Shown here piece after piece: positions 9,993 through 60,919 of a stretch of DNA of 64,000 nucleotides. The stretch's first letter is position 1; each line of letters starts with the position of its first letter. Made by a program: the position numbers and the translations under genes. Source of the stretch: Lachnospiraceae bacterium (GTDB lineage Bacteria; Bacillota; Clostridia; Lachnospirales; Lachnospiraceae); the NCBI GenBank assembly GCA_016285575.1, contig JAEEQX010000003.1, positions 781-64,780 of the forward strand. Direction: 5' to 3'. The notes under the pieces are model-generated. The model was given only the letters and a program-made list of their open reading frames with translations, had not been told where the DNA came from and searched no databases.

Positions 9993-10355
9993 TTATTTAT
10001 ATTTCTTTTTAATAGCCTTGAATGTCTCATCAGAGATAACATGTTCTATTCTGCAGGCATCTTCGGACGCGGTCTTCTCACTCACCCCAAAGTCTATAAG
10101 CATCTTGGTAAGATAAGTATGCTTTTCATATGTCTTCTTAGCTATCTTGCCACCTGCTTCGGTGAAATCAATATATCCGTTAGCATCAACTGTAACATAG
10201 CCTTCCTTCTTAAGGTTAGCTAAAGCAATACTTACGCTGGGCTTGGAGTAATTCATCTCCTTAACAATATCTATAGCTCTAACGTGCTCTAATCCTCGTT
10301 TCTTTAATACAAGTATTGTTTCGAGATACATCTCGCCTGATTCATATATAGCCAT
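9993..10355 (-). CDS. DtxR/MntR-family metal-dependent regulator, copy 1
   Basis: EMYLETI, SKPSVS recognition helix, KH, EDACRIEH; start at ATG 10355 after SD AGGGGG. Confidence 0.92.
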   Translation of the reverse strand: MAIYESGEMYLETILVLKKRGLEHVRAIDIVKEMNYSKPSVSIALANLKKEGYVTVDANGYIDFTEAGGKIAKKTYEKHTYLTKMLIDFGVSEKTASEDACRIEHVISDETFKAIKKKYK

Positions 10356-10459
10356 ATTTATCCCCCTGTGGTCACATATTTTCAATTCACTTTATATATT
10401 ATAAGACCGCTTCGTTAGAAAAACAATACAGAAGTTAGACTAATCGAACTGGCGGAGAA

Positions 10460-13335: not shown

Positions 13336-13433
13336 GTTAGATGCATCTAACCGTGTTTACGATTAAATGGCAGTTAAGGTTAGTCTTCCTTAACTGCCAT
13401 ATCTTTTATATCATATAGTATTTATTTTATCAA
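13336..13433 (-). promoter_or_regulatory. ECF-1 promoter with DtxR-type boxes and a 5' hairpin
   Basis: TTGATA (13433-28), 17 nt, TGn-TATAAA (13410-05); hairpin 13367-13400; GTTAG-ATGCAT-CTAAC 13336-51; GTTAG-TCTTCC-TTAAC 13379-94. Confidence 0.8.
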
Positions 13434-21536: not shown

Positions 21537-21636
21537 GTTAGATATACCTAACTGTATGTACGTTTAATTGGCGGTTAAAAAGTTAGTCCTCTTTAACCGC
21601 CAATCATTTTATAACACACTATTTATAATTGTTCAA
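21537..21636 (-). promoter_or_regulatory. feo-1 operon promoter cassette (boxes + 5' hairpin)
   Basis: TTGAAC, 17 nt, TGn-TATAAA (21636-21608); 13-bp-stem hairpin 21567-21604; GTTAG-ATATAC-CTAAC 21537-52; GTTAG-TCCTCT-TTAAC 21582-97. Confidence 0.82.
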
Positions 21637-27522: not shown

Positions 27523-27579
27523 TGACCGTTTTTTTATTTCGGTCATATAAATGTTAGCACCCGCTAACCGACTTGTCAA
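27523..27579 (-). promoter_or_regulatory. Promoter with DtxR-type box over the -10 and a TGACCG-N11-CGGTCA repeat
   Basis: TTGACA 27579-74, 17 nt, TGn-TAACAT; GTTAG-CACCCG-CTAAC 27553-68; inverted repeat 27523-45. Confidence 0.72.
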
Positions 27580-40404: not shown

Positions 40405-40503
40405 GTTAGAACTATCTAACCTTTAAAAAAATATAATTGGCGATTAAAGTTAGTCTACTATAACCGCCAATCATTTTATAACACACTATTTATAATTGTT
40501 CAA
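40405..40503 (-). promoter_or_regulatory. Promoter cassette duplicated with 21537-21636
   Basis: 43 bp (40461-503) identical to 21594-636; hairpin 40436-71; GTTAG-AACTAT-CTAAC 40405-20; GTTAG-TCTACT-ATAAC 40449-64. Confidence 0.85.
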
Positions 40504-43211: not shown

Positions 43212-43634
43212 TTACGCTTCTTTCTTCTTAGCTGACTTTTTAGCCTTGGAATCATCTTTTTTCTCTGTATCTGCTTTTGTACTCTTCTTAGCAGTTGTTG
43301 CTTTTGTAGAAGCCTTCTTTGTAGTTTTAGCTTTCTTTTCTTCTTTTGCTTCTTCTACAACTTCTTCGACGATTTCTTCAGCTTCATCTTCAACTTCTGA
43401 CTCTTTTTCTTTTGCAGCTCTTTCTTCATTGATAACCTTAGCTTCTTCATAGATATCACAGCAGTTTTCCTTTACAGCTGTAGCCTGATCCATAACATAA
43501 TCTTTGGCTCTCAATACACCTGCTGTACAATGTGTGTATACCTTCTTAGCATCCTTGGAACATAACATCTTAATGCCCCATAAACCAAACAATGTACCCC
43601 CTGCGAATAATGCGATTCCTTTCCACACTTTCAT
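43212..43634 (-). CDS. P1B-ATPase-associated small membrane-anchored protein with acidic and Lys/Ala-rich tail
   Basis: N-terminal TM, KKVYTHCTAGVLRAKD, then EEEVVEE and KKASTKATTAKK low-complexity tail; 3 nt upstream of the ATPase. Confidence 0.7.
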   Translation of the reverse strand: MKVWKGIALFAGGTLFGLWGIKMLCSKDAKKVYTHCTAGVLRAKDYVMDQATAVKENCCDIYEEAKVINEERAAKEKESEVEDEAEEIVEEVVEEAKEEKKAKTTKKASTKATTAKKSTKADTEKKDDSKAKKSAKKKEA

Positions 43635-43658
43635 AATTTTTACCTCCTATTTTTAAAA

Positions 43659-43750
43659 GTTAGATATGTCTAACTCTCTGTAATAAAAAATACGCGCCCT
43701 TAGGCGCTTTTAGATGCATTAATTGTAAATCAATTATATGATTTTTTCAA
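43659..43750 (-). promoter_or_regulatory. P-ATPase operon promoter with DtxR-type box
   Basis: TTGAAA 43750-45, 17 nt, TACAAT; GCGCC-CTTA-GGCGC hairpin; GTTAG-ATATGT-CTAAC 43659-74. Confidence 0.78.
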
Positions 43751-43782
43751 TCCATCAAGCTTAACTATCTTTGTTTTTTATT

Positions 43783-43818
43783 AAAAAAATGAGCAGGTTG
43801 AATTTTCAACCTGCCCAT
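43783..43818 (-). terminator. eno intrinsic terminator
   Basis: Minus ATGGGCAGGTTGAA-AA-TTCAACCTGCTCAT-TTTTTT. Confidence 0.85.
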
Positions 43819-43844
43819 CTGCCCTATGTAAAAGTTGCGGATTA

Positions 43845-45158
<1,314 letters not shown>

Positions 45159-45189
45159 CTAATATATATTTTTATCCCCTTTTAACATT

Positions 45190-45243
45190 GAATACCTCTC
45201 CTTGACGCAGGCCATAGGTACCGTTGTCAAAAGGAGAGGATTC
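45190..45243 (-). other. Structured leader hairpin upstream of eno
   Basis: CCTCTCCTT (45195-203) pairs with AAGGAGAGG (45231-39), flanked by GAAT/ATTC and GAC/GTC. Confidence 0.6.
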
Positions 45244-45260
45244 ACACATGATTTATTCTG

Positions 45261-45316
45261 GTTAGTTATCGCTAACCTTAAACATAATATCATTCATCGA
45301 GTTAGTTGTCAATAAC
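45261..45316 (-). promoter_or_regulatory. eno promoter with two DtxR-type boxes
   Basis: TTGACA 45312-07, 17 nt, TGn-TATTAT; GTTAG-TTATCG-CTAAC 45261-76; GTTAG-TTGTCA-ATAAC 45301-16. Confidence 0.78.
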
Positions 45317-45329
45317 CGCTTTGTATTTT

Positions 45330-46088
45330 TTAGCTATTAATTAATTTAGTAATACCCCTCACAAACTTCTTAGGTCTATAAGGTGCAAGTCCTCCATGAC
45401 CCACGTTCCTGATAACTCTGAATCTTGTGTTAGGATATATCTTTCTTATATATGCTATATCCGCTTTTCTGTCCTTAATCTCTTTTTCAGCAATCCAATA
45501 CTCTATCTTTTTGCAATTGGTATGTATGTACCTGGGCATGGTGTAATTATTGCAAGAGTCAAATGTTCTCCAGATAGTCTTAGCACTGATCATCTTGAGC
45601 ACTTTTGCTGCGTAATCTATATCTTCCTTGGATAATTCATCAAGAGAAAACGCTTTTTCCAAGAGATTGGCTCCTCCGATTTTTCCCATGTATATCATCA
45701 GGAAATCTTTTATTGCAATAAATCTTGTGAGAATCCAAGGCAATTGATAAGGTGTGATACCTCCATCGATTACTGCATTCTCGATATTAACTCGATTATT
45801 CGCAAGCATCCTAGTTACAATTGATCCCCCCATAGAGCATCCATATATACAAGTTACAGTATTTAGATTATTTCCAATCAGCCATTTCTCCAGGTCTCTT
45901 GATATTTGTTCAATACTTGTAAAGTCATCCTTTCTTGCAGGATTATACCCGGGTAACGCAGGAACTATCACATGATAATCCTTTTCAATTAAAGGAATTA
46001 CATCCTGAAAATAATCCCACATAACAATTGAAGGATGAATCAAAACTATTACCTTGTCATTATCTTTTCCATATTCATGTATTGTCAT
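45330..46088 (-). CDS. Alpha/beta hydrolase
   Basis: MTIHEYGKDN start, IHPS, GCSMGG, VGHGG. Confidence 0.85.
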   Translation of the reverse strand: MTIHEYGKDNDKVIVLIHPSIVMWDYFQDVIPLIEKDYHVIVPALPGYNPARKDDFTSIEQISRDLEKWLIGNNLNTVTCIYGCSMGGSIVTRMLANNRVNIENAVIDGGITPYQLPWILTRFIAIKDFLMIYMGKIGGANLLEKAFSLDELSKEDIDYAAKVLKMISAKTIWRTFDSCNNYTMPRYIHTNCKKIEYWIAEKEIKDRKADIAYIRKIYPNTRFRVIRNVGHGGLAPYRPKKFVRGITKLINS

Positions 46089-50171: not shown

Positions 50172-50289
50172 GAGGCAGATTGAAGAATCAATCCGCCTCT
50201 CCTGAAATGTGTAAAAGAAAATGTGTTATTCTAGTTAGTTGTTTCTAACCTTCTGTATATTAGCACTCGAAGAGTTAGTTGTCAATAAC
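50172..50289 (-). promoter_or_regulatory. ABC pair 3 promoter, two DtxR-type boxes and a leader hairpin
   Basis: TTGACA 50285-80, 17 nt, TGn-TAATAT; GTTAG-TTGTTT-CTAAC 50234-49; GTTAG-TTGTCA-ATAAC 50274-89; hairpin GAGGCGGATTGA-TTCT-TCAATCTGCCTC 50199-72. Confidence 0.78.
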
Positions 50290-51480: not shown

Positions 51481-51573
51481 GTTAGTTATCGCTAACCTGT
51501 TTTCCTTGTAAAAACCGATATTTCTATCGGTTAGTTACAACTAACATTATACATGCTATCACTGTTCTGTCAA
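51481..51573 (-). promoter_or_regulatory. Flavodoxin promoter with two perfect DtxR-type boxes
   Basis: TTGACA 51573-68, 16 nt, TATAAT; GTTAG-TTATCG-CTAAC 51481-96; GTTAG-TTACAA-CTAAC 51530-45. Confidence 0.82.
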
Positions 51574-51615: not shown

Positions 51616-54600
51616 CTATTCTCTATTCTTTAATACTTCGTTCTCACTAATTTTGTTTAATTTGCCTGAGAGTATTAAATTGATGATTTCATATAATGCC
51701 ATGATTGCTCCAAATATCATCAGATACATATACCATTTAAACTCCAAATGAATTGCGCATGCAACGTTTGCTATAAACGATGGAAACAATATATCTATGA
51801 TCTTCTTGGATACAGGTATTGATATAAGCGCTCCAAGCATTATTACGAGCCTATTGCCATCAAGATAGAGTCTTTTAACTTCTTTGTTTCTATATCCAAG
51901 TATCTTTAATAATGAAATACCCGTTTTAGCTCTATCAATCATTACCGACATCATAAGATACATTACTATGCAGAATATTACTGCTGACATACCTATTAAA
52001 AGCGAAAACATCGGTACCATTAGTTTTAAGAAAATCTTCGATGCTTTATCGATATCCGCTTTAGATGTTACTGAATAAAGTCTACCTTCTTCAATATCAA
52101 GCTTTTTATCTGATAAAATAACATTATAATAATCATCTTCCTCACCGAAGAGTTCTCTCATACTGTCTATATCCATAAATACCGTTACGCCTACAGAATA
52201 AGGCACAACCTTTTCTATGGTAAATGCATAATCGATATCTTCGGCCGTATCTGTAAATACGATCTTGTCTCCTACTTTTACGTTGTATCTTTGGATAACC
52301 GCATCGCTTGCAACTATCTTGTTTTTACCCTTTACTGTCTCGACATTATAATATGGATTGTCATCATCTATACCTATAACAGTAATATCCAAATTGTATC
52401 CATACTGTTCTTTTTTAAGGGATGTAATAAAGCAAGGTTCTCCACCTTCAGGAGGCTCCTTGGTTGGATACTTGTATGTGTACATGTAATTGTATGTTGT
52501 ATCCTGCGAATTTAATCTTCCTACACTTTCACATAATACATAGCAATCCATACCAAGCATAAATATAAGCAAGGAAATAACCATGCCGAATATAACCGTA
52601 ATTGCGGTTCTTCTTTCCCTGATTATCTGTCTGATTCTGTATGTGGATATGAATGACATCTTGCCAAGTTTAATATCCTTGCCCTTAGTTATCTTTTGCT
52701 CATTTCTAAGTAGTGAAAGAGCTGTTCTCGACAGGCTCTTATTAATAACTAAAAAGTTAACTATAGCCGATACGGCTGCGGGCATAACTACAGAATAAAT
52801 CACAAGATAGAGAGGTGCTCTGGCCGGCATATCCGGAATCGAAAAGTAGCTGTAGCAATCCGCCATCTGCCACTTGCATCCGAACTTGCTCATGCCGAGC
52901 AACCCACCGATTGTACCACCCGTAAAAGCTATCATTGTCGGTATGAAAATATAATGTATAATAAGGTCGCTTTTTCTTGCACCAAGAGCATATAACGCTC
53001 CGATAACACTGCTTTCGCTCTTAATCTGATGAATAACAAATACAGATAATACGTATGTCAAAAGAACTATAACAATAACTCCGGCATATAATCCAACAGT
53101 CTTATCTATCTCCACATCTCCGGCTGCTCCGCCCACTCGAATGTTTTCCTCCTTATTCATGAAAGCTGTGATGTTATCTGGAGATTCCGAGAATAACTTA
53201 TCAAGCATCTCGTCTGATTGTTCCTTGAGATCTTTTACACCATCTTTGAGTTCTTTTACTCCATCTTTTAATTCTTTTGAACCATCCTGTAATTCACCGA
53301 CGCCATCATCGAGTTCATCGCTCGCATCTCTGGCTTCTTTTACAGCATCTTTAAGTTCTGCTGTACCATCATATAATTCCTTGGCACCATCTTTTAACTT
53401 TCCTGTACCATCTTTTAATTCTGATACACCGTTGTATAATTCCTGTCCGCCCTTGGCGAGTTCTCCCGCTCCACCTGCAACTTTACCGACACCATCAGTA
53501 TATGCACCTACACCTGATGAAAAATTAGCAAGCGAATCAAGAGAAGCCTTGGCAGTTCGAATATCTGTAGCCGCAGAAGGAATCTGATAAGCCTCAAAAG
53601 TAGCTGCCAAATCATTTAGAACCGTTCCGTAATTACTTGCTGTTAGTGTAATTGTTCCAATAGGTGGTACTCCCTGTGGTAGCTGTGCATTAACACCAAC
53701 TATTGCTTGATTGATGGAATCCTGAGTAGATTTAAGTGTAGCAGCAAATATACTGTTAGCACCGTTTTTTAAATCTCCACTATTTTTATTGAGTGTATTG
53801 GTACCATCCTTTAACGAATTAGCACCATCCTTTAATGAGTTACTTCCATCCTTAAGTTTTCCTACTCCGTCATCCAAATCCTTAGTAGCGTCCTTGAATT
53901 CACCAACCCCTTTATGTAACTCACTTGTACCATCGTAGAGTTCATACATTCCGTTTTTGAATTCTTTGGTGCCGTCTTTTAATTCGTCAACACCATCAGC
54001 AAGTTCAACTGTACCATCGTAGAGTTCATCAACTCCATCTACGAGGTCATTGATGCCGTCCTGTATATCATCCTTCTTGCCATATGTATCCGCGAGCATC
54101 TCTTTGTAGTAAGGATCATCGACCTTTTTATAATCAAAAGGAAAATCCTTAATCATCTCTTTTAACTCATCAGCTGTCATAGCATCGTTAAGTATGAATG
54201 CATATGTTACATCTTCTGTAGCGGCATACTTATCTTTTTTTATAAGATTGTAATCGTCTTCGCATACAAAAGCCGTGCCAAATACACTGCAATCAATCGC
54301 GGTATCCGATAACTTTCTGTAAGGAGCATCATAATCAACCGTACTTCCGATACCAACAACCGTATAATCTTCGCCTGCAATAGGAAGCTTATCTCCAACC
54401 TTAATATCTTTTTCAGCAGCATATCTGTTAAGTAATACTATTTCTCCGTGATTATCAGCTTCTTTTCCCTCGTCAAGAATTACTAAGTCAATCTTTTTTC
54501 TGTTAGCGAATATTCTTAATACTGTATTATCACTGAGTGTATAATCAAAACTCTTATGAGCTTCAACTGTTACACCCTTATCTTCTATTTTTTTGATCTC

Positions 54601-54813
54601 TTCTTCTGTAAAAGGATTAAAAAGCGTAACCTGGCAATCTTCAAGACGAGCATCTTTCTGTATTTCCTTGGTTCCTTCAATCAGCGAATATGCACTGTCT
54701 ACAATAGCTACTACCAAAAACATACATACAGCGATAAGAGCAAGCAGCGCAAAATATCTGAAGAAATTCTTTTTAATATCTCTTATATATCTCTTAAGCA
54801 ATACTCTTTTCAT
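51616..54813 (-). CDS. FtsX/MacB-like ABC permease with long heptad-repeat coiled coil
   Basis: Two FtsX-like modules (IGALYALG, ISLLKILGY); central LxDGxxE/K heptad repeats. Confidence 0.85.
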   Translation of the reverse strand: MKRVLLKRYIRDIKKNFFRYFALLALIAVCMFLVVAIVDSAYSLIEGTKEIQKDARLEDCQVTLFNPFTEEEIKKIEDKGVTVEAHKSFDYTLSDNTVLRIFANRKKIDLVILDEGKEADNHGEIVLLNRYAAEKDIKVGDKLPIAGEDYTVVGIGSTVDYDAPYRKLSDTAIDCSVFGTAFVCEDDYNLIKKDKYAATEDVTYAFILNDAMTADELKEMIKDFPFDYKKVDDPYYKEMLADTYGKKDDIQDGINDLVDGVDELYDGTVELADGVDELKDGTKEFKNGMYELYDGTSELHKGVGEFKDATKDLDDGVGKLKDGSNSLKDGANSLKDGTNTLNKNSGDLKNGANSIFAATLKSTQDSINQAIVGVNAQLPQGVPPIGTITLTASNYGTVLNDLAATFEAYQIPSAATDIRTAKASLDSLANFSSGVGAYTDGVGKVAGGAGELAKGGQELYNGVSELKDGTGKLKDGAKELYDGTAELKDAVKEARDASDELDDGVGELQDGSKELKDGVKELKDGVKDLKEQSDEMLDKLFSESPDNITAFMNKEENIRVGGAAGDVEIDKTVGLYAGVIVIVLLTYVLSVFVIHQIKSESSVIGALYALGARKSDLIIHYIFIPTMIAFTGGTIGGLLGMSKFGCKWQMADCYSYFSIPDMPARAPLYLVIYSVVMPAAVSAIVNFLVINKSLSRTALSLLRNEQKITKGKDIKLGKMSFISTYRIRQIIRERRTAITVIFGMVISLLIFMLGMDCYVLCESVGRLNSQDTTYNYMYTYKYPTKEPPEGGEPCFITSLKKEQYGYNLDITVIGIDDDNPYYNVETVKGKNKIVASDAVIQRYNVKVGDKIVFTDTAEDIDYAFTIEKVVPYSVGVTVFMDIDSMRELFGEEDDYYNVILSDKKLDIEEGRLYSVTSKADIDKASKIFLKLMVPMFSLLIGMSAVIFCIVMYLMMSVMIDRAKTGISLLKILGYRNKEVKRLYLDGNRLVIMLGALISIPVSKKIIDILFPSFIANVACAIHLEFKWYMYLMIFGAIMALYEIINLILSGKLNKISENEVLKNRE

Positions 54814-55514
54814 TACAGATCCTCCAATTCGCTTGCAGGAACTCTGACTTCATTTTCATATTCGTTCTTAACAAGACCATCTTTAAGATATATAACCTTA
54901 TGTACCATGTTTTTAATCGAGTTGTTATGTGTAACTATAACCATTGTTGTATTGTATCTCTCGTTAATCTGCTCCAGTAGAGTAAGAATATCTCTCGATG
55001 TATTAGAATCAAGCGCACCCGTAGGTTCATCACATAATAAAAGCTTGGGGTTCTTAATAAGTGCTCTCGCGATTGCGCAACGCTGTTGCTGACCACCGGA
55101 AAGTTGTGATGGAAACTTATTCTGATGTTCTGTAAGCCCTAATACATCAAGAAGTTCATTCATGTTAAGCGGATCCTTAGTTAAGTATTCACATACCTGG
55201 ATATTTTCTTTTACAGTTAAATTCGGAACCAGGTTATAAAATTGAAAGATAAAGCCAAGATTCGCTCTTCTGTATTCAGCGAGATTCTTATTCTTCATTC
55301 CGAATATTTCTGTTCTATCTACGATAATGGAACCTGAATCCATAGTATCAAGTCCGCCTATGCAATTAAGAAGTGTGGATTTGCCTGAGCCCGATGTTCC
55401 CTGTATTACGCACATCTGCCCTCTCTCTACACCTGTTGTAACCCCTTTTAATACCTGTACGAAACTTCCACCTTCTACGTAAATTTTATTGACATTCTTA
55501 ATATCGAGGTACAT
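54813..55514 (-). CDS. ABC ATPase (LolD/MacB-like)
   Basis: GTSGSGKS, GFIFQFYNL, LSGGQQQR, DEPTGALD; start 55514 (MYLD). Confidence 0.92.
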   Translation of the reverse strand: MYLDIKNVNKIYVEGGSFVQVLKGVTTGVERGQMCVIQGTSGSGKSTLLNCIGGLDTMDSGSIIVDRTEIFGMKNKNLAEYRRANLGFIFQFYNLVPNLTVKENIQVCEYLTKDPLNMNELLDVLGLTEHQNKFPSQLSGGQQQRCAIARALIKNPKLLLCDEPTGALDSNTSRDILTLLEQINERYNTTMVIVTHNNSIKNMVHKVIYLKDGLVKNEYENEVRVPASELEDL

Positions 55515-55529
55515 TCTTTTTCTCCATTC

Positions 55530-55596
55530 CACATAACAATGTTATGTATTTGTTATTTTTTAATCACATAACATTGTTATGTGATTGTTATTTTTT
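55530..55596. repeat. Tandem 32-bp repeat (35-bp period), each copy holding a TetR-type palindrome
   Basis: CACATAACAATGTTATGTATTTGTTATTTTTT and CACATAACATTGTTATGTGATTGTTATTTTTT (29/32 identical). Confidence 0.85.
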
Positions 55597-55597
55597 T

Positions 55598-55619
55598 GCC
55601 GCTTCTTTGGAGAAGCGGC
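55598..55619. other. GC-rich hairpin, U-tract only on the plus strand
   Basis: GCCGCTTCT-TTGG-AGAAGCGGC-TTTATT. Confidence 0.55.
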
Positions 55620-55635
55620 TTTATTGTATTTTATA

Positions 55636-56301
55636 TTATTTTTTCTTCTTGGTTTTAGTTTTACTATCCTTGTTATCAACAGGAACCATAACCAATTTTA
55701 CCCAACCGATTACAAGATAATTCATAATGCTTTGAATTCTCTTCAAAGCGATCTCTTCATCTCTCTCATGCATAACAACTTGGGAGATTGAATCAACTGT
55801 CGTATGCGCCATCCAGTGGGTCATAAAAGGATCGTAAGTATAAAAGTTCGAATCCTTAACCATTAGAACCGTAGACTTTTCTATAAGATCTACGAATTCA
55901 TCTATTATCTGGTCGAACGCATCCTCTTTTGAACCTGACAACAATAAAACGAAACTATCATAGTTCTTGTATATGCATTTAACAATCATTTCCGCTATGT
56001 CAGAATGATCTAAATCACCAAAGTCAAGAGAATTCATATTGCCCATAAATTCTCTGTCCTCTTTGTAATGTTCCGTAATCATTCTTTTTAGTTCTTCAAG
56101 AGGCGGATTAATAATTGAGTCAAACAGGTCTTCTTTGTTATTGAAGAAAAAGTAAAGCGCTCCCGTAGTCACACCTGCTTTTGCGCATATATTCCGAAGT
56201 GAAGCTTTATTGTATCCTTTTTCAAGAAACTCCTGCTTTGCTGCTTCAATTAACAGTCTTCTTTTTTCATAATCGTTTTCGTTTTTATTCACGTCAAACA
56301 C
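55636..56301 (-). CDS. TetR/AcrR-family regulator 4
   Basis: ASLRNICAKAGVTTGALYFFFNNKEDLF; GTG start at 56301 or 56292. Confidence 0.9.
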   Translation of the reverse strand: MFDVNKNENDYEKRRLLIEAAKQEFLEKGYNKASLRNICAKAGVTTGALYFFFNNKEDLFDSIINPPLEELKRMITEHYKEDREFMGNMNSLDFGDLDHSDIAEMIVKCIYKNYDSFVLLLSGSKEDAFDQIIDEFVDLIEKSTVLMVKDSNFYTYDPFMTHWMAHTTVDSISQVVMHERDEEIALKRIQSIMNYLVIGWVKLVMVPVDNKDSKTKTKKKK

Positions 56302-56324
56302 CTTAAAATCATAAATGTAAATGC

Positions 56325-56377
56325 ATAACAGCGTTACGTAACAATGTTATGATAATTATTTTTAAGGTATTTGTCAA
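56325..56377 (-). promoter_or_regulatory. tetR-4 promoter with two abutting operators
   Basis: TTGACA 56377-72, 17 nt, TATCAT; ATAACAGCGTTAC + GTAACAATGTTAT (56325-50) match the 55530-96 palindromes. Confidence 0.78.
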
Positions 56378-56387
56378 CTTCTATATT

Positions 56388-57205: not shown

Positions 57206-57604
57206 TTACTTAACAAGTTTTAATGCATACGTGTTAAAAGCGTTGGAATTATATAGTCTTTCGAGGCAATTATAAGTTTCTTCGCCTATGATATGTTCTA
57301 TGTCTCCTGCTTCTTCCAATGCATTGTCTTTGCTGACTCCTATTTTAAGTAAGAATCCCGCAAGCATAAGATGCTTGTCATATACTTTTTGTGCAATCTC
57401 TCTGCCTGAATCCGTAAGTGTAATGAATCTGTCTTCGCCAAACACAATATAGTTCTTATCCTGTAATTTTTTTACCATCGCACAAACCGTAGGTTTTGTT
57501 ACTCCTAGTTTGTGAACTATATCCACGGATCTGACCGAACCTTTGGATTTTTGCAATATTAAAATGCATTCCAGATAATCTTGTGTTAAGTTGTTTTTTT
57601 GCAT
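57206..57604 (-). CDS. DtxR/MntR-family metal-dependent regulator, copy 2
   Basis: QDYLECI, TKPTV helix, DKH, EEAGDIEH. Confidence 0.88.
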   Translation of the reverse strand: MQKNNLTQDYLECILILQKSKGSVRSVDIVHKLGVTKPTVCAMVKKLQDKNYIVFGEDRFITLTDSGREIAQKVYDKHLMLAGFLLKIGVSKDNALEEAGDIEHIIGEETYNCLERLYNSNAFNTYALKLVK

Positions 57605-60796: not shown

Positions 60797-60919
60797 GTTA
60801 GTTTTAACTAACCCTTTAGCTTTTAATATAAGTTAGATTTCTCTAACCCTTATGCCAACAAAATAGGTTAGCAACATCTAACCATGTATTATAATAATTA
60901 GTTGTCGCTAACCTGTCAA
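60797..60919 (-). promoter_or_regulatory. feo-2 promoter with four DtxR-type boxes
   Basis: Boxes start at 60797, 60832, 60867 (perfect) and 60897 (ATTAG); TTGACA 60919-14, 17 nt, TATTAT. Confidence 0.85.

Follow-up and report, generated by a model that had tools for sequence, protein, structure and literature searches.

In the DtxR/IdeR branch of the DtxR family of metal-dependent repressors each monomer reads one CCTAA quintet, the 19-bp site binds two dimers on opposite faces of the DNA, and half sites can bind one dimer (PMC8464063). In MntR of Bacillus subtilis the recognition helix contacts base pairs 4–7 from the dyad of the operator (PMC11275975). A DtxR-family repressor is coupled to a gene of lower glycolysis in Treponema pallidum, i.e., in the troABCD-troR-gpm operon (PMC2628430). 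As a rule metal-responsive repressors are tied to uptake, storage and metal-sparing substitutes, and not to central glycolysis. In C. difficile flavodoxin and feo genes reportedly belong to a Fur-controlled low-iron stimulon and are induced together under iron scarcity. Enolase itself is not known to be a direct target with an operator at its promoter. Among the papers searched there was no DtxR or MntR regulon described for Lachnospiraceae or Ruminococcus and none with enolase, and no binding or expression results for the source organism or its relatives.

The 64-kb stretch of Lachnospiraceae DNA analysed here (the window) contains an enolase gene, eno, with two copies of a short palindrome, the box GTTAG-N6-CTAAC, in its promoter. 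Judged from the sequence, the two eno boxes are probably operators for a dimeric, metal-dependent repressor of the DtxR family, most likely in its Fe2+-loaded form. If this is true, enolase would be a regular member of the metal-limitation response in a large and agriculturally important group of fibre-degrading anaerobes.

The eno promoter and the boxes of the window

The eno gene (43845..45146) is located on the minus strand, which carries nearly every gene in the window, and encodes an enolase of 433 amino acids with complete Pfam domains Enolase_N and Enolase_C and close similarity to solved enolases (PDB 3uj2, E = 3.5e-207). It is followed by an intrinsic terminator with a 15-bp stem and a T run (43787..43820). 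An exact-protein look-up of the enolase gave no record, and the closest enolase in a species-representative collection is that of a Lachnospiraceae MAG (97%). The sequence-only reading, an earlier interpretation made from the letters of the window, had considered an iron-repressed "enolase copy". This idea finds no support, as the gene is a canonical full-length enolase, orthologous at 87–97% to eno of relatives, and nothing in the analysis speaks for the moonlighting role that had been considered along with it.

On the gene strand the 183 nt that precede eno contain, in this order, GTTA-TTGACA-ACTAAC, 11 nt, TG-A-TATTAT, 7 nt, and GTTAGCGATAACTAAC. The sigma-A-type promoter (45284..45312, minus strand) consists of the -35 hexamer TTGACA at 45312–45307, a 17-nt spacer, TG, and the -10 hexamer TATTAT at 45289–45284, and is the top sigma-70-like match within 43500–45500 in a consensus scan (11/12, plus TG before the -10). 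The putative proximal operator, O1 (45261..45276; GTTAGCGATAACTAAC on the gene strand), is a perfect GTTAG-N6-CTAAC box that starts 7 nt past the -10, at the expected +1, and thus spans about +1 to +16. The putative distal operator, O2 (45301..45316; GTTATTGACAACTAAC on the gene strand), has one mismatch and holds the -35 hexamer inside it. The centre-to-centre distance between O1 and O2 is 40 bp, and the upstream ABC operon ends 14 nt 5' of O2.

The sequence-only reading had also claimed that the eno boxes recur at other promoters of the window, and in this it was right. The letters of O1, GTTAGTTATCGCTAAC at 45261–45276, are the same as those of a flavodoxin box at 51481–51496, and O1 sits at the expected +1 as had been claimed. 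Similarly the 17-mer AGTTAGTTGTCAATAAC at 45300–45316, around O2, is found at 50273–50289 in the promoter of ABC exporter pair 3, and here the identity is even longer than noticed, i.e., 18 nt in all (45299–45316 and 50272–50289). The promoter-operator module of ABC pair 3 (50234..50289) is paralogous to that of eno and carries its boxes at 50234–50249 and 50274–50289, in the same layout and with the same 40-bp spacing. Alignment of the two modules gives 48 identities in 64 nt and a score of 58, where none of 500 shuffles exceeded 29, and the two look like copies of a single promoter-operator cassette. An O2-type box at the 40-bp spacing is kept upstream of eno in three related loci (L001–L003).

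With at most one mismatch allowed, GTTAG-N6-CTAAC has 23 matches in the window, where 1.22 would be expected (at most 5 in 100 shuffles), i.e., the box is over-represented about 20-fold. All 23 boxes are intergenic and 15 are perfect. The flavodoxin promoter (51481..51545) has two perfect boxes, one right after the -10 (51530–51545) and one further downstream (51481–51496), a layout repeated in the related locus L084; flavodoxin is followed by DUF3793. Four boxes are found in the promoter (60797..60912) of the operon feoA-feoA-feoB-(Cys-rich protein)-dtxR2-ZIP, one in the spacer between -35 and -10, one at +1 and two downstream. A second box-bearing feoAB locus is a methyltransferase-HMA-feoA-feoB operon, and the remaining box-bearing operons encode three ABC exporter-type pairs, two ECF-type transporters with Trep_Strep components, DUF6110 together with a P-type ATPase, and, by Pfam annotation, TetR and hydrolase proteins. 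Boxes thus overlap the promoters of metal-acquisition genes, namely feoAB at two loci and the flavodoxin, ZIP, ECF and ABC operons. Their placement differs between operons, being over the -35, in the spacer (as in the TetR operon at 27553), in the -10/+1 region or downstream, and because the position relative to the core promoter elements varies in this way the boxes are best seen as repressor operators acting on the DNA. The proposal that they belong to a metal-related regulon is supported by the two feoAB loci and by the genes for flavodoxin, ZIP, HMA proteins and two members of the DtxR family.

Some candidates were set aside. The one-mismatch matches at 13379, 21582 and 40449 are located within longer palindromes able to form hairpins and are probably no ordinary boxes, and the one at 10434, some 45–60 nt 5' of the likely dtxR1 promoter, may be due to chance. 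Motifs of the integron attC, CRP/FNR, Rex, NrdR and Fur types were dropped on geometry, sequence and position.

Conservation upstream of eno and the leader RNA

A genome collection was scanned for eno orthologues, and the best 80 loci, one per genome, were taken, 78 of them with readable upstream DNA. The loci, at 87–97% protein identity, belong to Lachnospiraceae of rumen and gut, to Butyrivibrio, to Ruminococcus flavefaciens and R. albus, to Saccharofermentans and to further bacteria. Conservation of the box upstream of orthologous eno genes, which the sequence-only reading had named as a check, turned out strongly positive: among the matches listed, 47/78 loci have a perfect box no more than 300 nt upstream of the eno start codon, usually at +1. 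In 36 of these 47 box-bearing loci among the matches listed the box starts 6–9 nt (mode 7) past a TAnnnT -10 that has a -35 at 16–18 nt. Spacers, flanks and leader stems have diverged across the related eno loci while the ten arm bases are fixed, the GTTAG and CTAAC arms being invariant by definition of the search pattern.

Altogether 120 perfect boxes were found in 666 kb of related loci, against about one predicted by base composition, an excess of about 100-fold; among the matches listed 56 are within 300 nt upstream of eno and 64 elsewhere. The related loci share ancestry, so that such counts overstate the number of independent events, although gene arrangements still differ between lineages. 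The 64 boxes away from eno precede genes for flavodoxin, DUF3793, ABC pairs, Trep_Strep ECF components, ZIP, HMA proteins, methyltransferases and DtxR. These are the same metal-related families as in the window, which argues against a global or abundant promoter element or a repeat. The idea of an abundant motif was also rejected because a 20-kb locus chosen for its dtxR2 (L081) has boxes solely at feo.

In nine further loci of the 78 among the matches listed eno is found directly behind flavodoxin, on the same strand and with no opposing gene, and a perfect box is present upstream of the flavodoxin-eno cluster in eight of the nine; the box of the ninth (L040) has one mismatch. The order is (DUF3793)-fld-eno in six of these loci (L014, L018, L034, L039, L040, and L041) and DUF3793-fld-gpmA-eno, with a perfect box upstream, in the other three (L053, L058, and L062), of which L058 and L062 have a DtxR1-type gene after eno. 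In L069 the order is dtxR-[boxes]-eno-[box]-ZIP and eno has two boxes. Seven loci among the matches listed have a DtxR-family gene no more than 4 kb from eno, and 22–23 of the 78 are without a perfect box, whether direct or via an upstream cluster. Three lines of evidence, which are partly independent, assign eno to the regulon, namely operator conservation, operon fusion and regulator neighbourhood. The suspicion of the sequence-only reading that eno had become a regulon member gains from the conserved operator and from the flavodoxin-eno and flavodoxin-gpmA-eno-dtxR clusters of other genomes, and eno is a conserved target of this predicted regulon, not a chance match. As enolase in the related loci is 87–93% identical across bacterial families, the eno module may have spread horizontally.

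The 5' leader of eno (45147..45260, minus strand) contains the element GAAUAAAUCAU at 45258–45248, a hairpin at about 45244–45189 and the Shine-Dalgarno sequence AGGAGG at 45160–45155. Its build is conserved in the related loci, where the box is followed by a near-invariant GAAUAAAUCAU and a very stable long hairpin, the arms of which vary between lineages with their complementarity kept; the 5' arm is anti-SD-like and the 3' arm SD-like. These structures come from single-sequence folds, since the variable stems are misaligned in MAFFT plus RNAalifold. No Rfam family matched anywhere in the window at gathering thresholds, and 45100–45340 gave noise only at E up to 10. One 151-nt contig from a rumen metatranscriptome covers 45109–45258 and ends just before the box, which indicates that the leader is transcribed. 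The leader is a candidate cis-regulatory RNA and may provide a second, RNA-level layer of eno control.

It is conceivable that the box, too, acts mainly as RNA, i.e., that a 5'-terminal GUUAG...CUAAC stem-loop serves as a stabiliser or as the site of an RNA-binding protein in the eno leader, although we find this very unlikely. The box starts at the predicted +1 in most eno loci with the conserved leader directly after it, it gives a hairpin of 5–6 bp in every leader folded, and positions 6/11 are complementary in 89 of 138 sites where 51.5 are expected by permutation. However, excess symmetry is found at 0/17, 6/11 and 8/9 and not at 7/10, which fits better with a symmetric preference of half-sites, and half-site and spacing equal the per-dimer site of DtxR/IdeR. 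Several boxes would never be transcribed, namely those over the -35 (eno and ABC pair 3) and those in the -35/-10 spacer (the second feo promoter, L081, and the TetR operon at 27553). For a structured RNA the box also has an invariant stem, its bases being fixed by the search pattern and free of covariation, and no Rfam family. Finally, L034 and L039 have the conserved eno leader between flavodoxin and eno but no box there. The RNA-level explanation is weakened most by the many untranscribed boxes and by a stem that never covaries, and the box is better taken as a site on DNA.

Candidate regulators, the metal and physiology

The window contains two short DtxR-family genes (PF01325 plus PF02742). 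The first, dtxR1 (9993..10355, minus strand), encodes a DtxR/IdeR-like protein, DtxR1, with its best matches to DtxR and IdeR and with Met10, Cys102, Glu105 and His106 conserved. Homologues of DtxR1 adjoin eno in L019, L047, L058 and L062, and these eno-linked homologues keep all four primary-site ligands (Met10, Cys102, Glu105, and His106); in L019 the promoter of the homologue's gene is itself overlapped by a box. The second, dtxR2 (57206..57604, minus strand), is located within the box-bearing feo operon and encodes a protein, DtxR2, which matches MntR best (E. coli MntR, 2e-16), has Asp at the position of DtxR Met10 and Gly at that of Cys102, and is missing the ligand equivalent to Glu99. 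In both paralogues the position of Gln43, which in IdeR contacts the first base of the quintet, is Ile or Ala. The operon feoA-feoA-feoB-x-dtxR2 is shared by a Lachnospiraceae MAG (L081) although its DtxR2 is just 51% identical. The feo promoter of this MAG reads TTGACAG-GTTAGCCTGCTCTAAC-TATAAT, with a further box at +1 and a pair of boxes downstream of it, and its four boxes are the only ones in 20 kb. A DtxR-family gene is hence linked to the boxes in two ways, by the presence of dtxR2 within a box-bearing feo operon (in the window and in L081) and by the boxed promoter of the homologue in L019.

A regulator without any relation to metal, responsive to haem, redox state or a drug-like ligand and belonging to the TetR family or the CRP/FNR type, would make this linkage coincidental, which we regard as highly improbable. 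The 5-N6-5 geometry of the box is also typical of CRP/FNR sites, four TetR genes of the window adjoin box-bearing ABC operons, and the tie between DtxR-family proteins and the box is one drawn from sequence. On the other hand those TetR genes that lie close to the MacB-type ABC operon carry different palindromes of their own, the boxes occupy positions of repressors and not those of activators of the CRP/FNR type, the half-site is the DtxR/IdeR quintet, and distant genomes repeatedly have DtxR-family genes within or next to operons controlled by the box. A DtxR-family protein is therefore the better candidate.

Both the binding protein and the metal are matters on which we infer rather than observe. 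Iron is favoured because flavodoxin and the two feoAB loci form the core of the regulon, because the manganese importers mntH and mntABC are absent from the box-associated genes in the window and in the 86 related loci, and because DtxR1-type proteins carry Fe-type ligands. With the same regulator and the same operators the effector could instead be Mn2+, or a mixture of Mn, Fe and Zn, in which case eno, and in some genomes gpmA, would be part of a manganese-limitation response. This is unlikely, but manganese or a mixed specificity has to be taken seriously in view of the MntR-like character of the feo-linked paralogue: DtxR2, encoded within the box-controlled feo-ZIP operon, matches E. coli MntR at 2e-16 and has Asp at the Met10 position. 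In addition the gpmA of the L053, L058 and L062 clusters encodes a histidine-phosphatase-type mutase, which we take to be cofactor-dependent and metal-independent, and which could spare a Mn-dependent mutase. Such sparing is said to have been discussed for the tro-gpm operon of T. pallidum. The TroR protein of T. denticola, moreover, is responsive to both Mn and Fe (PMC2628430). Against manganese stand the regulon itself, which was seen without importers of the mntH or mntABC type and which includes two feoAB loci along with flavodoxin, the classic stand-in when iron is low, as well as the Fe-type set Met10, Cys102, Glu105 and His106 retained by DtxR1 and its eno-linked homologues.

With iron as the preferred metal, the following mechanism can be proposed, in which repression rather than activation is suggested by the operator position. 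With ample metal, most likely Fe2+, the loaded repressor would sit both on O2, across the -35, and on O1, at +1, and would block RNA polymerase at the near-consensus sigma-A promoter; the bound repressor may also stop transcription that runs in from the ABC operon upstream. Under metal scarcity the DNA would be free of repressor and eno would be derepressed along with feoAB, flavodoxin and the transporter operons. In rumen metatranscriptomes eno-like genes are abundant, in data that mix many taxa and alleles and hold no metal contrast, and because such similar enolases are abundant any repression of eno in vivo would be at most partial or conditional. The R. flavefaciens 007c locus, used as query against metatranscriptomes, yielded no usable RNA evidence.

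Many rumen Butyrivibrio strains are without enolase and are thought to use the methylglyoxal shunt instead (PMC6912079). The premise of the sequence-only reading that enolase is a core enzyme therefore needs a reservation for rumen Butyrivibrio, where many strains have lost eno and the gene is not strictly core (PMC6912079). Conditional control of eno becomes less paradoxical, as enolase is conditionally dispensable in the Butyrivibrio lineage. It is tempting to speculate that low iron cripples the energy conservation by iron-rich ferredoxin, Rnf and Ech on which these anaerobes depend and that cells then shift to substrate-level phosphorylation via lower glycolysis. It is possible, although as a whole rather doubtful, that in gut and rumen Clostridia lower glycolysis (eno, or gpmA-eno with flavodoxin and the repressor gene) has been drawn into a DtxR-family low-iron regulon, that eno is under two-layer control by the operator at +1 and the leader RNA, and that metal sets the flow through enolase or its bypass. 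If so, metal status would decide the carbon route between enolase and the enolase-free bypass of Butyrivibrio, and this would provide a handle on the puzzle of how many rumen Butyrivibrio can lose enolase.

Comparison with described operators and regulons

The conserved bases of the box are located 4–8 bp from the dyad. When the classical consensus TTAGGTTAGSCTAACCTAA is written out, the quintets of one dimer are spaced TTAG-N6-CTAA, which equals the box. The 19-bp site of four quintets is not found here: the box has two, and its central N6 and outer flanks carry little information. Because it has two quintets instead of four, the box is read as a one-dimer variant of the DtxR/IdeR operator, a 16-bp palindrome that is new as a variant, and not as a classical iron box. 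The box leaves the first position of the quintet free, consistent with the change of Gln43 to Ile or Ala in both paralogues. A 16-bp, one-dimer operator would be an aid to predicting DtxR-family regulons in Clostridia.

A close relative of the box is the DtxR/IdeR iron box of Corynebacterium, Mycobacterium and Saccharopolyspora (TTAGGTTAGSCTAACCTAA), with which it has the CCTAA/TTAGG quintet in common. In both systems the operators overlap promoters of metal uptake genes and the regulators have the same two-domain core, and DtxR1 keeps the primary-site ligands. In contrast to the iron box, the box described here is 16 bp long with two quintets, and the central six bases as well as the first quintet position are free. 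The regulators are without the SH3-like third domain, the hosts are Clostridia and not Actinobacteria, and strength seems to come from several separate boxes, 30–49 bp apart.

MntR of B. subtilis and E. coli, with its 18-bp operators, resembles the present system as a short two-domain protein that binds as one dimer per palindrome. Its helix contacts base pairs 4–7 from the dyad, there are several sites per promoter (PMC11275975), and DtxR2 matches MntR best. The half-site sequence is unlike that of MntR, however, the regulon contains feoAB and flavodoxin rather than mntH or mntABC, and DtxR2 has no equivalent of Glu99. The Fur stimulons of Clostridia, e.g., that of C. difficile, depend on another regulator family and another box than those described here.

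With respect to lower glycolysis the nearest parallel is the tro operon of T. pallidum, to which the DUF3793-fld-gpmA-eno-dtxR clusters of L058 and L062 correspond. It differs in its spirochaete host, in the 18-bp operator of TroR and in gpm, which is reported to be expressed semi-autonomously. In the window, by comparison, eno stands on an operator-bearing promoter of its own, and the association recurs across many Clostridia.

The eno leader and the possible spread of enolase

The 5' leader of the enolase gene eno (window 45147-45260, minus strand) has counterparts upstream of eno in L001-L080, the related loci from other genomes. In the window and in these loci the order of elements is conserved, i.e., a near-invariant GAAUAAAUCAU is followed by a long stable hairpin of approximately -25 to -45 kcal/mol. 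The arm sequences of the hairpin differ by lineage but their complementarity is kept, as in the pairs CCUCUCC/GGAGAGG, UUCCUCUUU/AAAGAGGAA, CCUGCCGG/CCGGCAGG, and GCAGGCUCC/GAGCCUGC; the 5' arm is an anti-SD-like sequence, and an apical CCUAUG is kept in a Lachnospiraceae subset. In L034 and L039 the spacer between flavodoxin and eno carries the leader motif without the box, the 16-bp putative operator of a DtxR-family repressor (GTTAG-N6-CTAAC, perfect or with one mismatch). The eno leader had no match in Rfam and is a candidate for a new cis-regulatory RNA.

In a comparison with L020-L080, the window enolase (43845-45146) is 87-93% identical to those of Ruminococcus flavefaciens, R. albus, and other families, whereas its identity to the best solved structure, 3uj2 from a human-gut Lachnospiraceae, is apparently lower (<80%, judged by eye). 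The comparison suggests that eno has spread horizontally among rumen Clostridia, possibly with operator and leader along with it. Loss of eno from many Butyrivibrio strains has been reported (PMC6912079).

Placement of boxes in operon leaders

The metal-homeostasis island takes up approximately 50 kb of the window (9993-60912). Within it approximately 13 operons are predicted to be box-controlled, nearly all on the same strand, and some modules are duplicated: ECF systems, feoB, and methyltransferases occur twice each, ABC pairs three times, and DUF6796 genes several times.

Three of the operon leaders, those of two paralogous SAM-methyltransferase operons with near-identical promoters and of one Trep_Strep ECF operon, open with a hairpin-forming palindrome of 7-13 bp (13370-13405, 21570-21612, and 40438-40476), e.g., TTGGCGGTTAAA-N12-TTTAACCGCCAA. 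A central GACTAAC causes these palindromes to be scored as one-mismatch boxes, and a perfect box lies 12-16 nt downstream of each. In the DUF6110/P-type ATPase operon the box is placed deep in the leader; downstream of the promoter (43750-43722) come first a small GC hairpin and its T run (43707-43694) and then the box (43674-43659), directly ahead of the ribosome-binding site. As it sits well inside the leader, this box might act as a roadblock.

The two DtxR-family regulators

Upstream of dtxR1 a one-mismatch box match was found at 10431-10451 (gene strand TTCGATTAGTCTAACTTCT), approximately 45-60 nt upstream of the likely promoter. It agrees with the classical 19-bp DtxR operator core (TTAG-N-CTAA) at 13 of 19 positions, and could be either a weak classical-type DtxR site or a chance match.

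In the feo-linked DtxR2 (57206-57604) the Cys102-equivalent ligand is replaced by Gly, and in its homologue in the related locus L084 (495-884) the equivalents of Glu105 and His106 are lost too (AGMIGNV), while the homologues of L007, L069, and L081 retain Cys, Glu, and His. In some lineages DtxR2 may have altered or degenerating metal sensing.

The TetR and ABC genes

A repeated palindrome, CATAACATTGTTATG, which differs from the GTTAG box, lies ahead of the MacB/FtsX-type ABC operon (51616-55532) and the adjoining TetR gene (55636-56301), at 55533-55635 and 56302-56387; no GTTAG box was found in either of these two regions. The layout resembles that of a TetR-controlled efflux system, e.g., hrtRBA.
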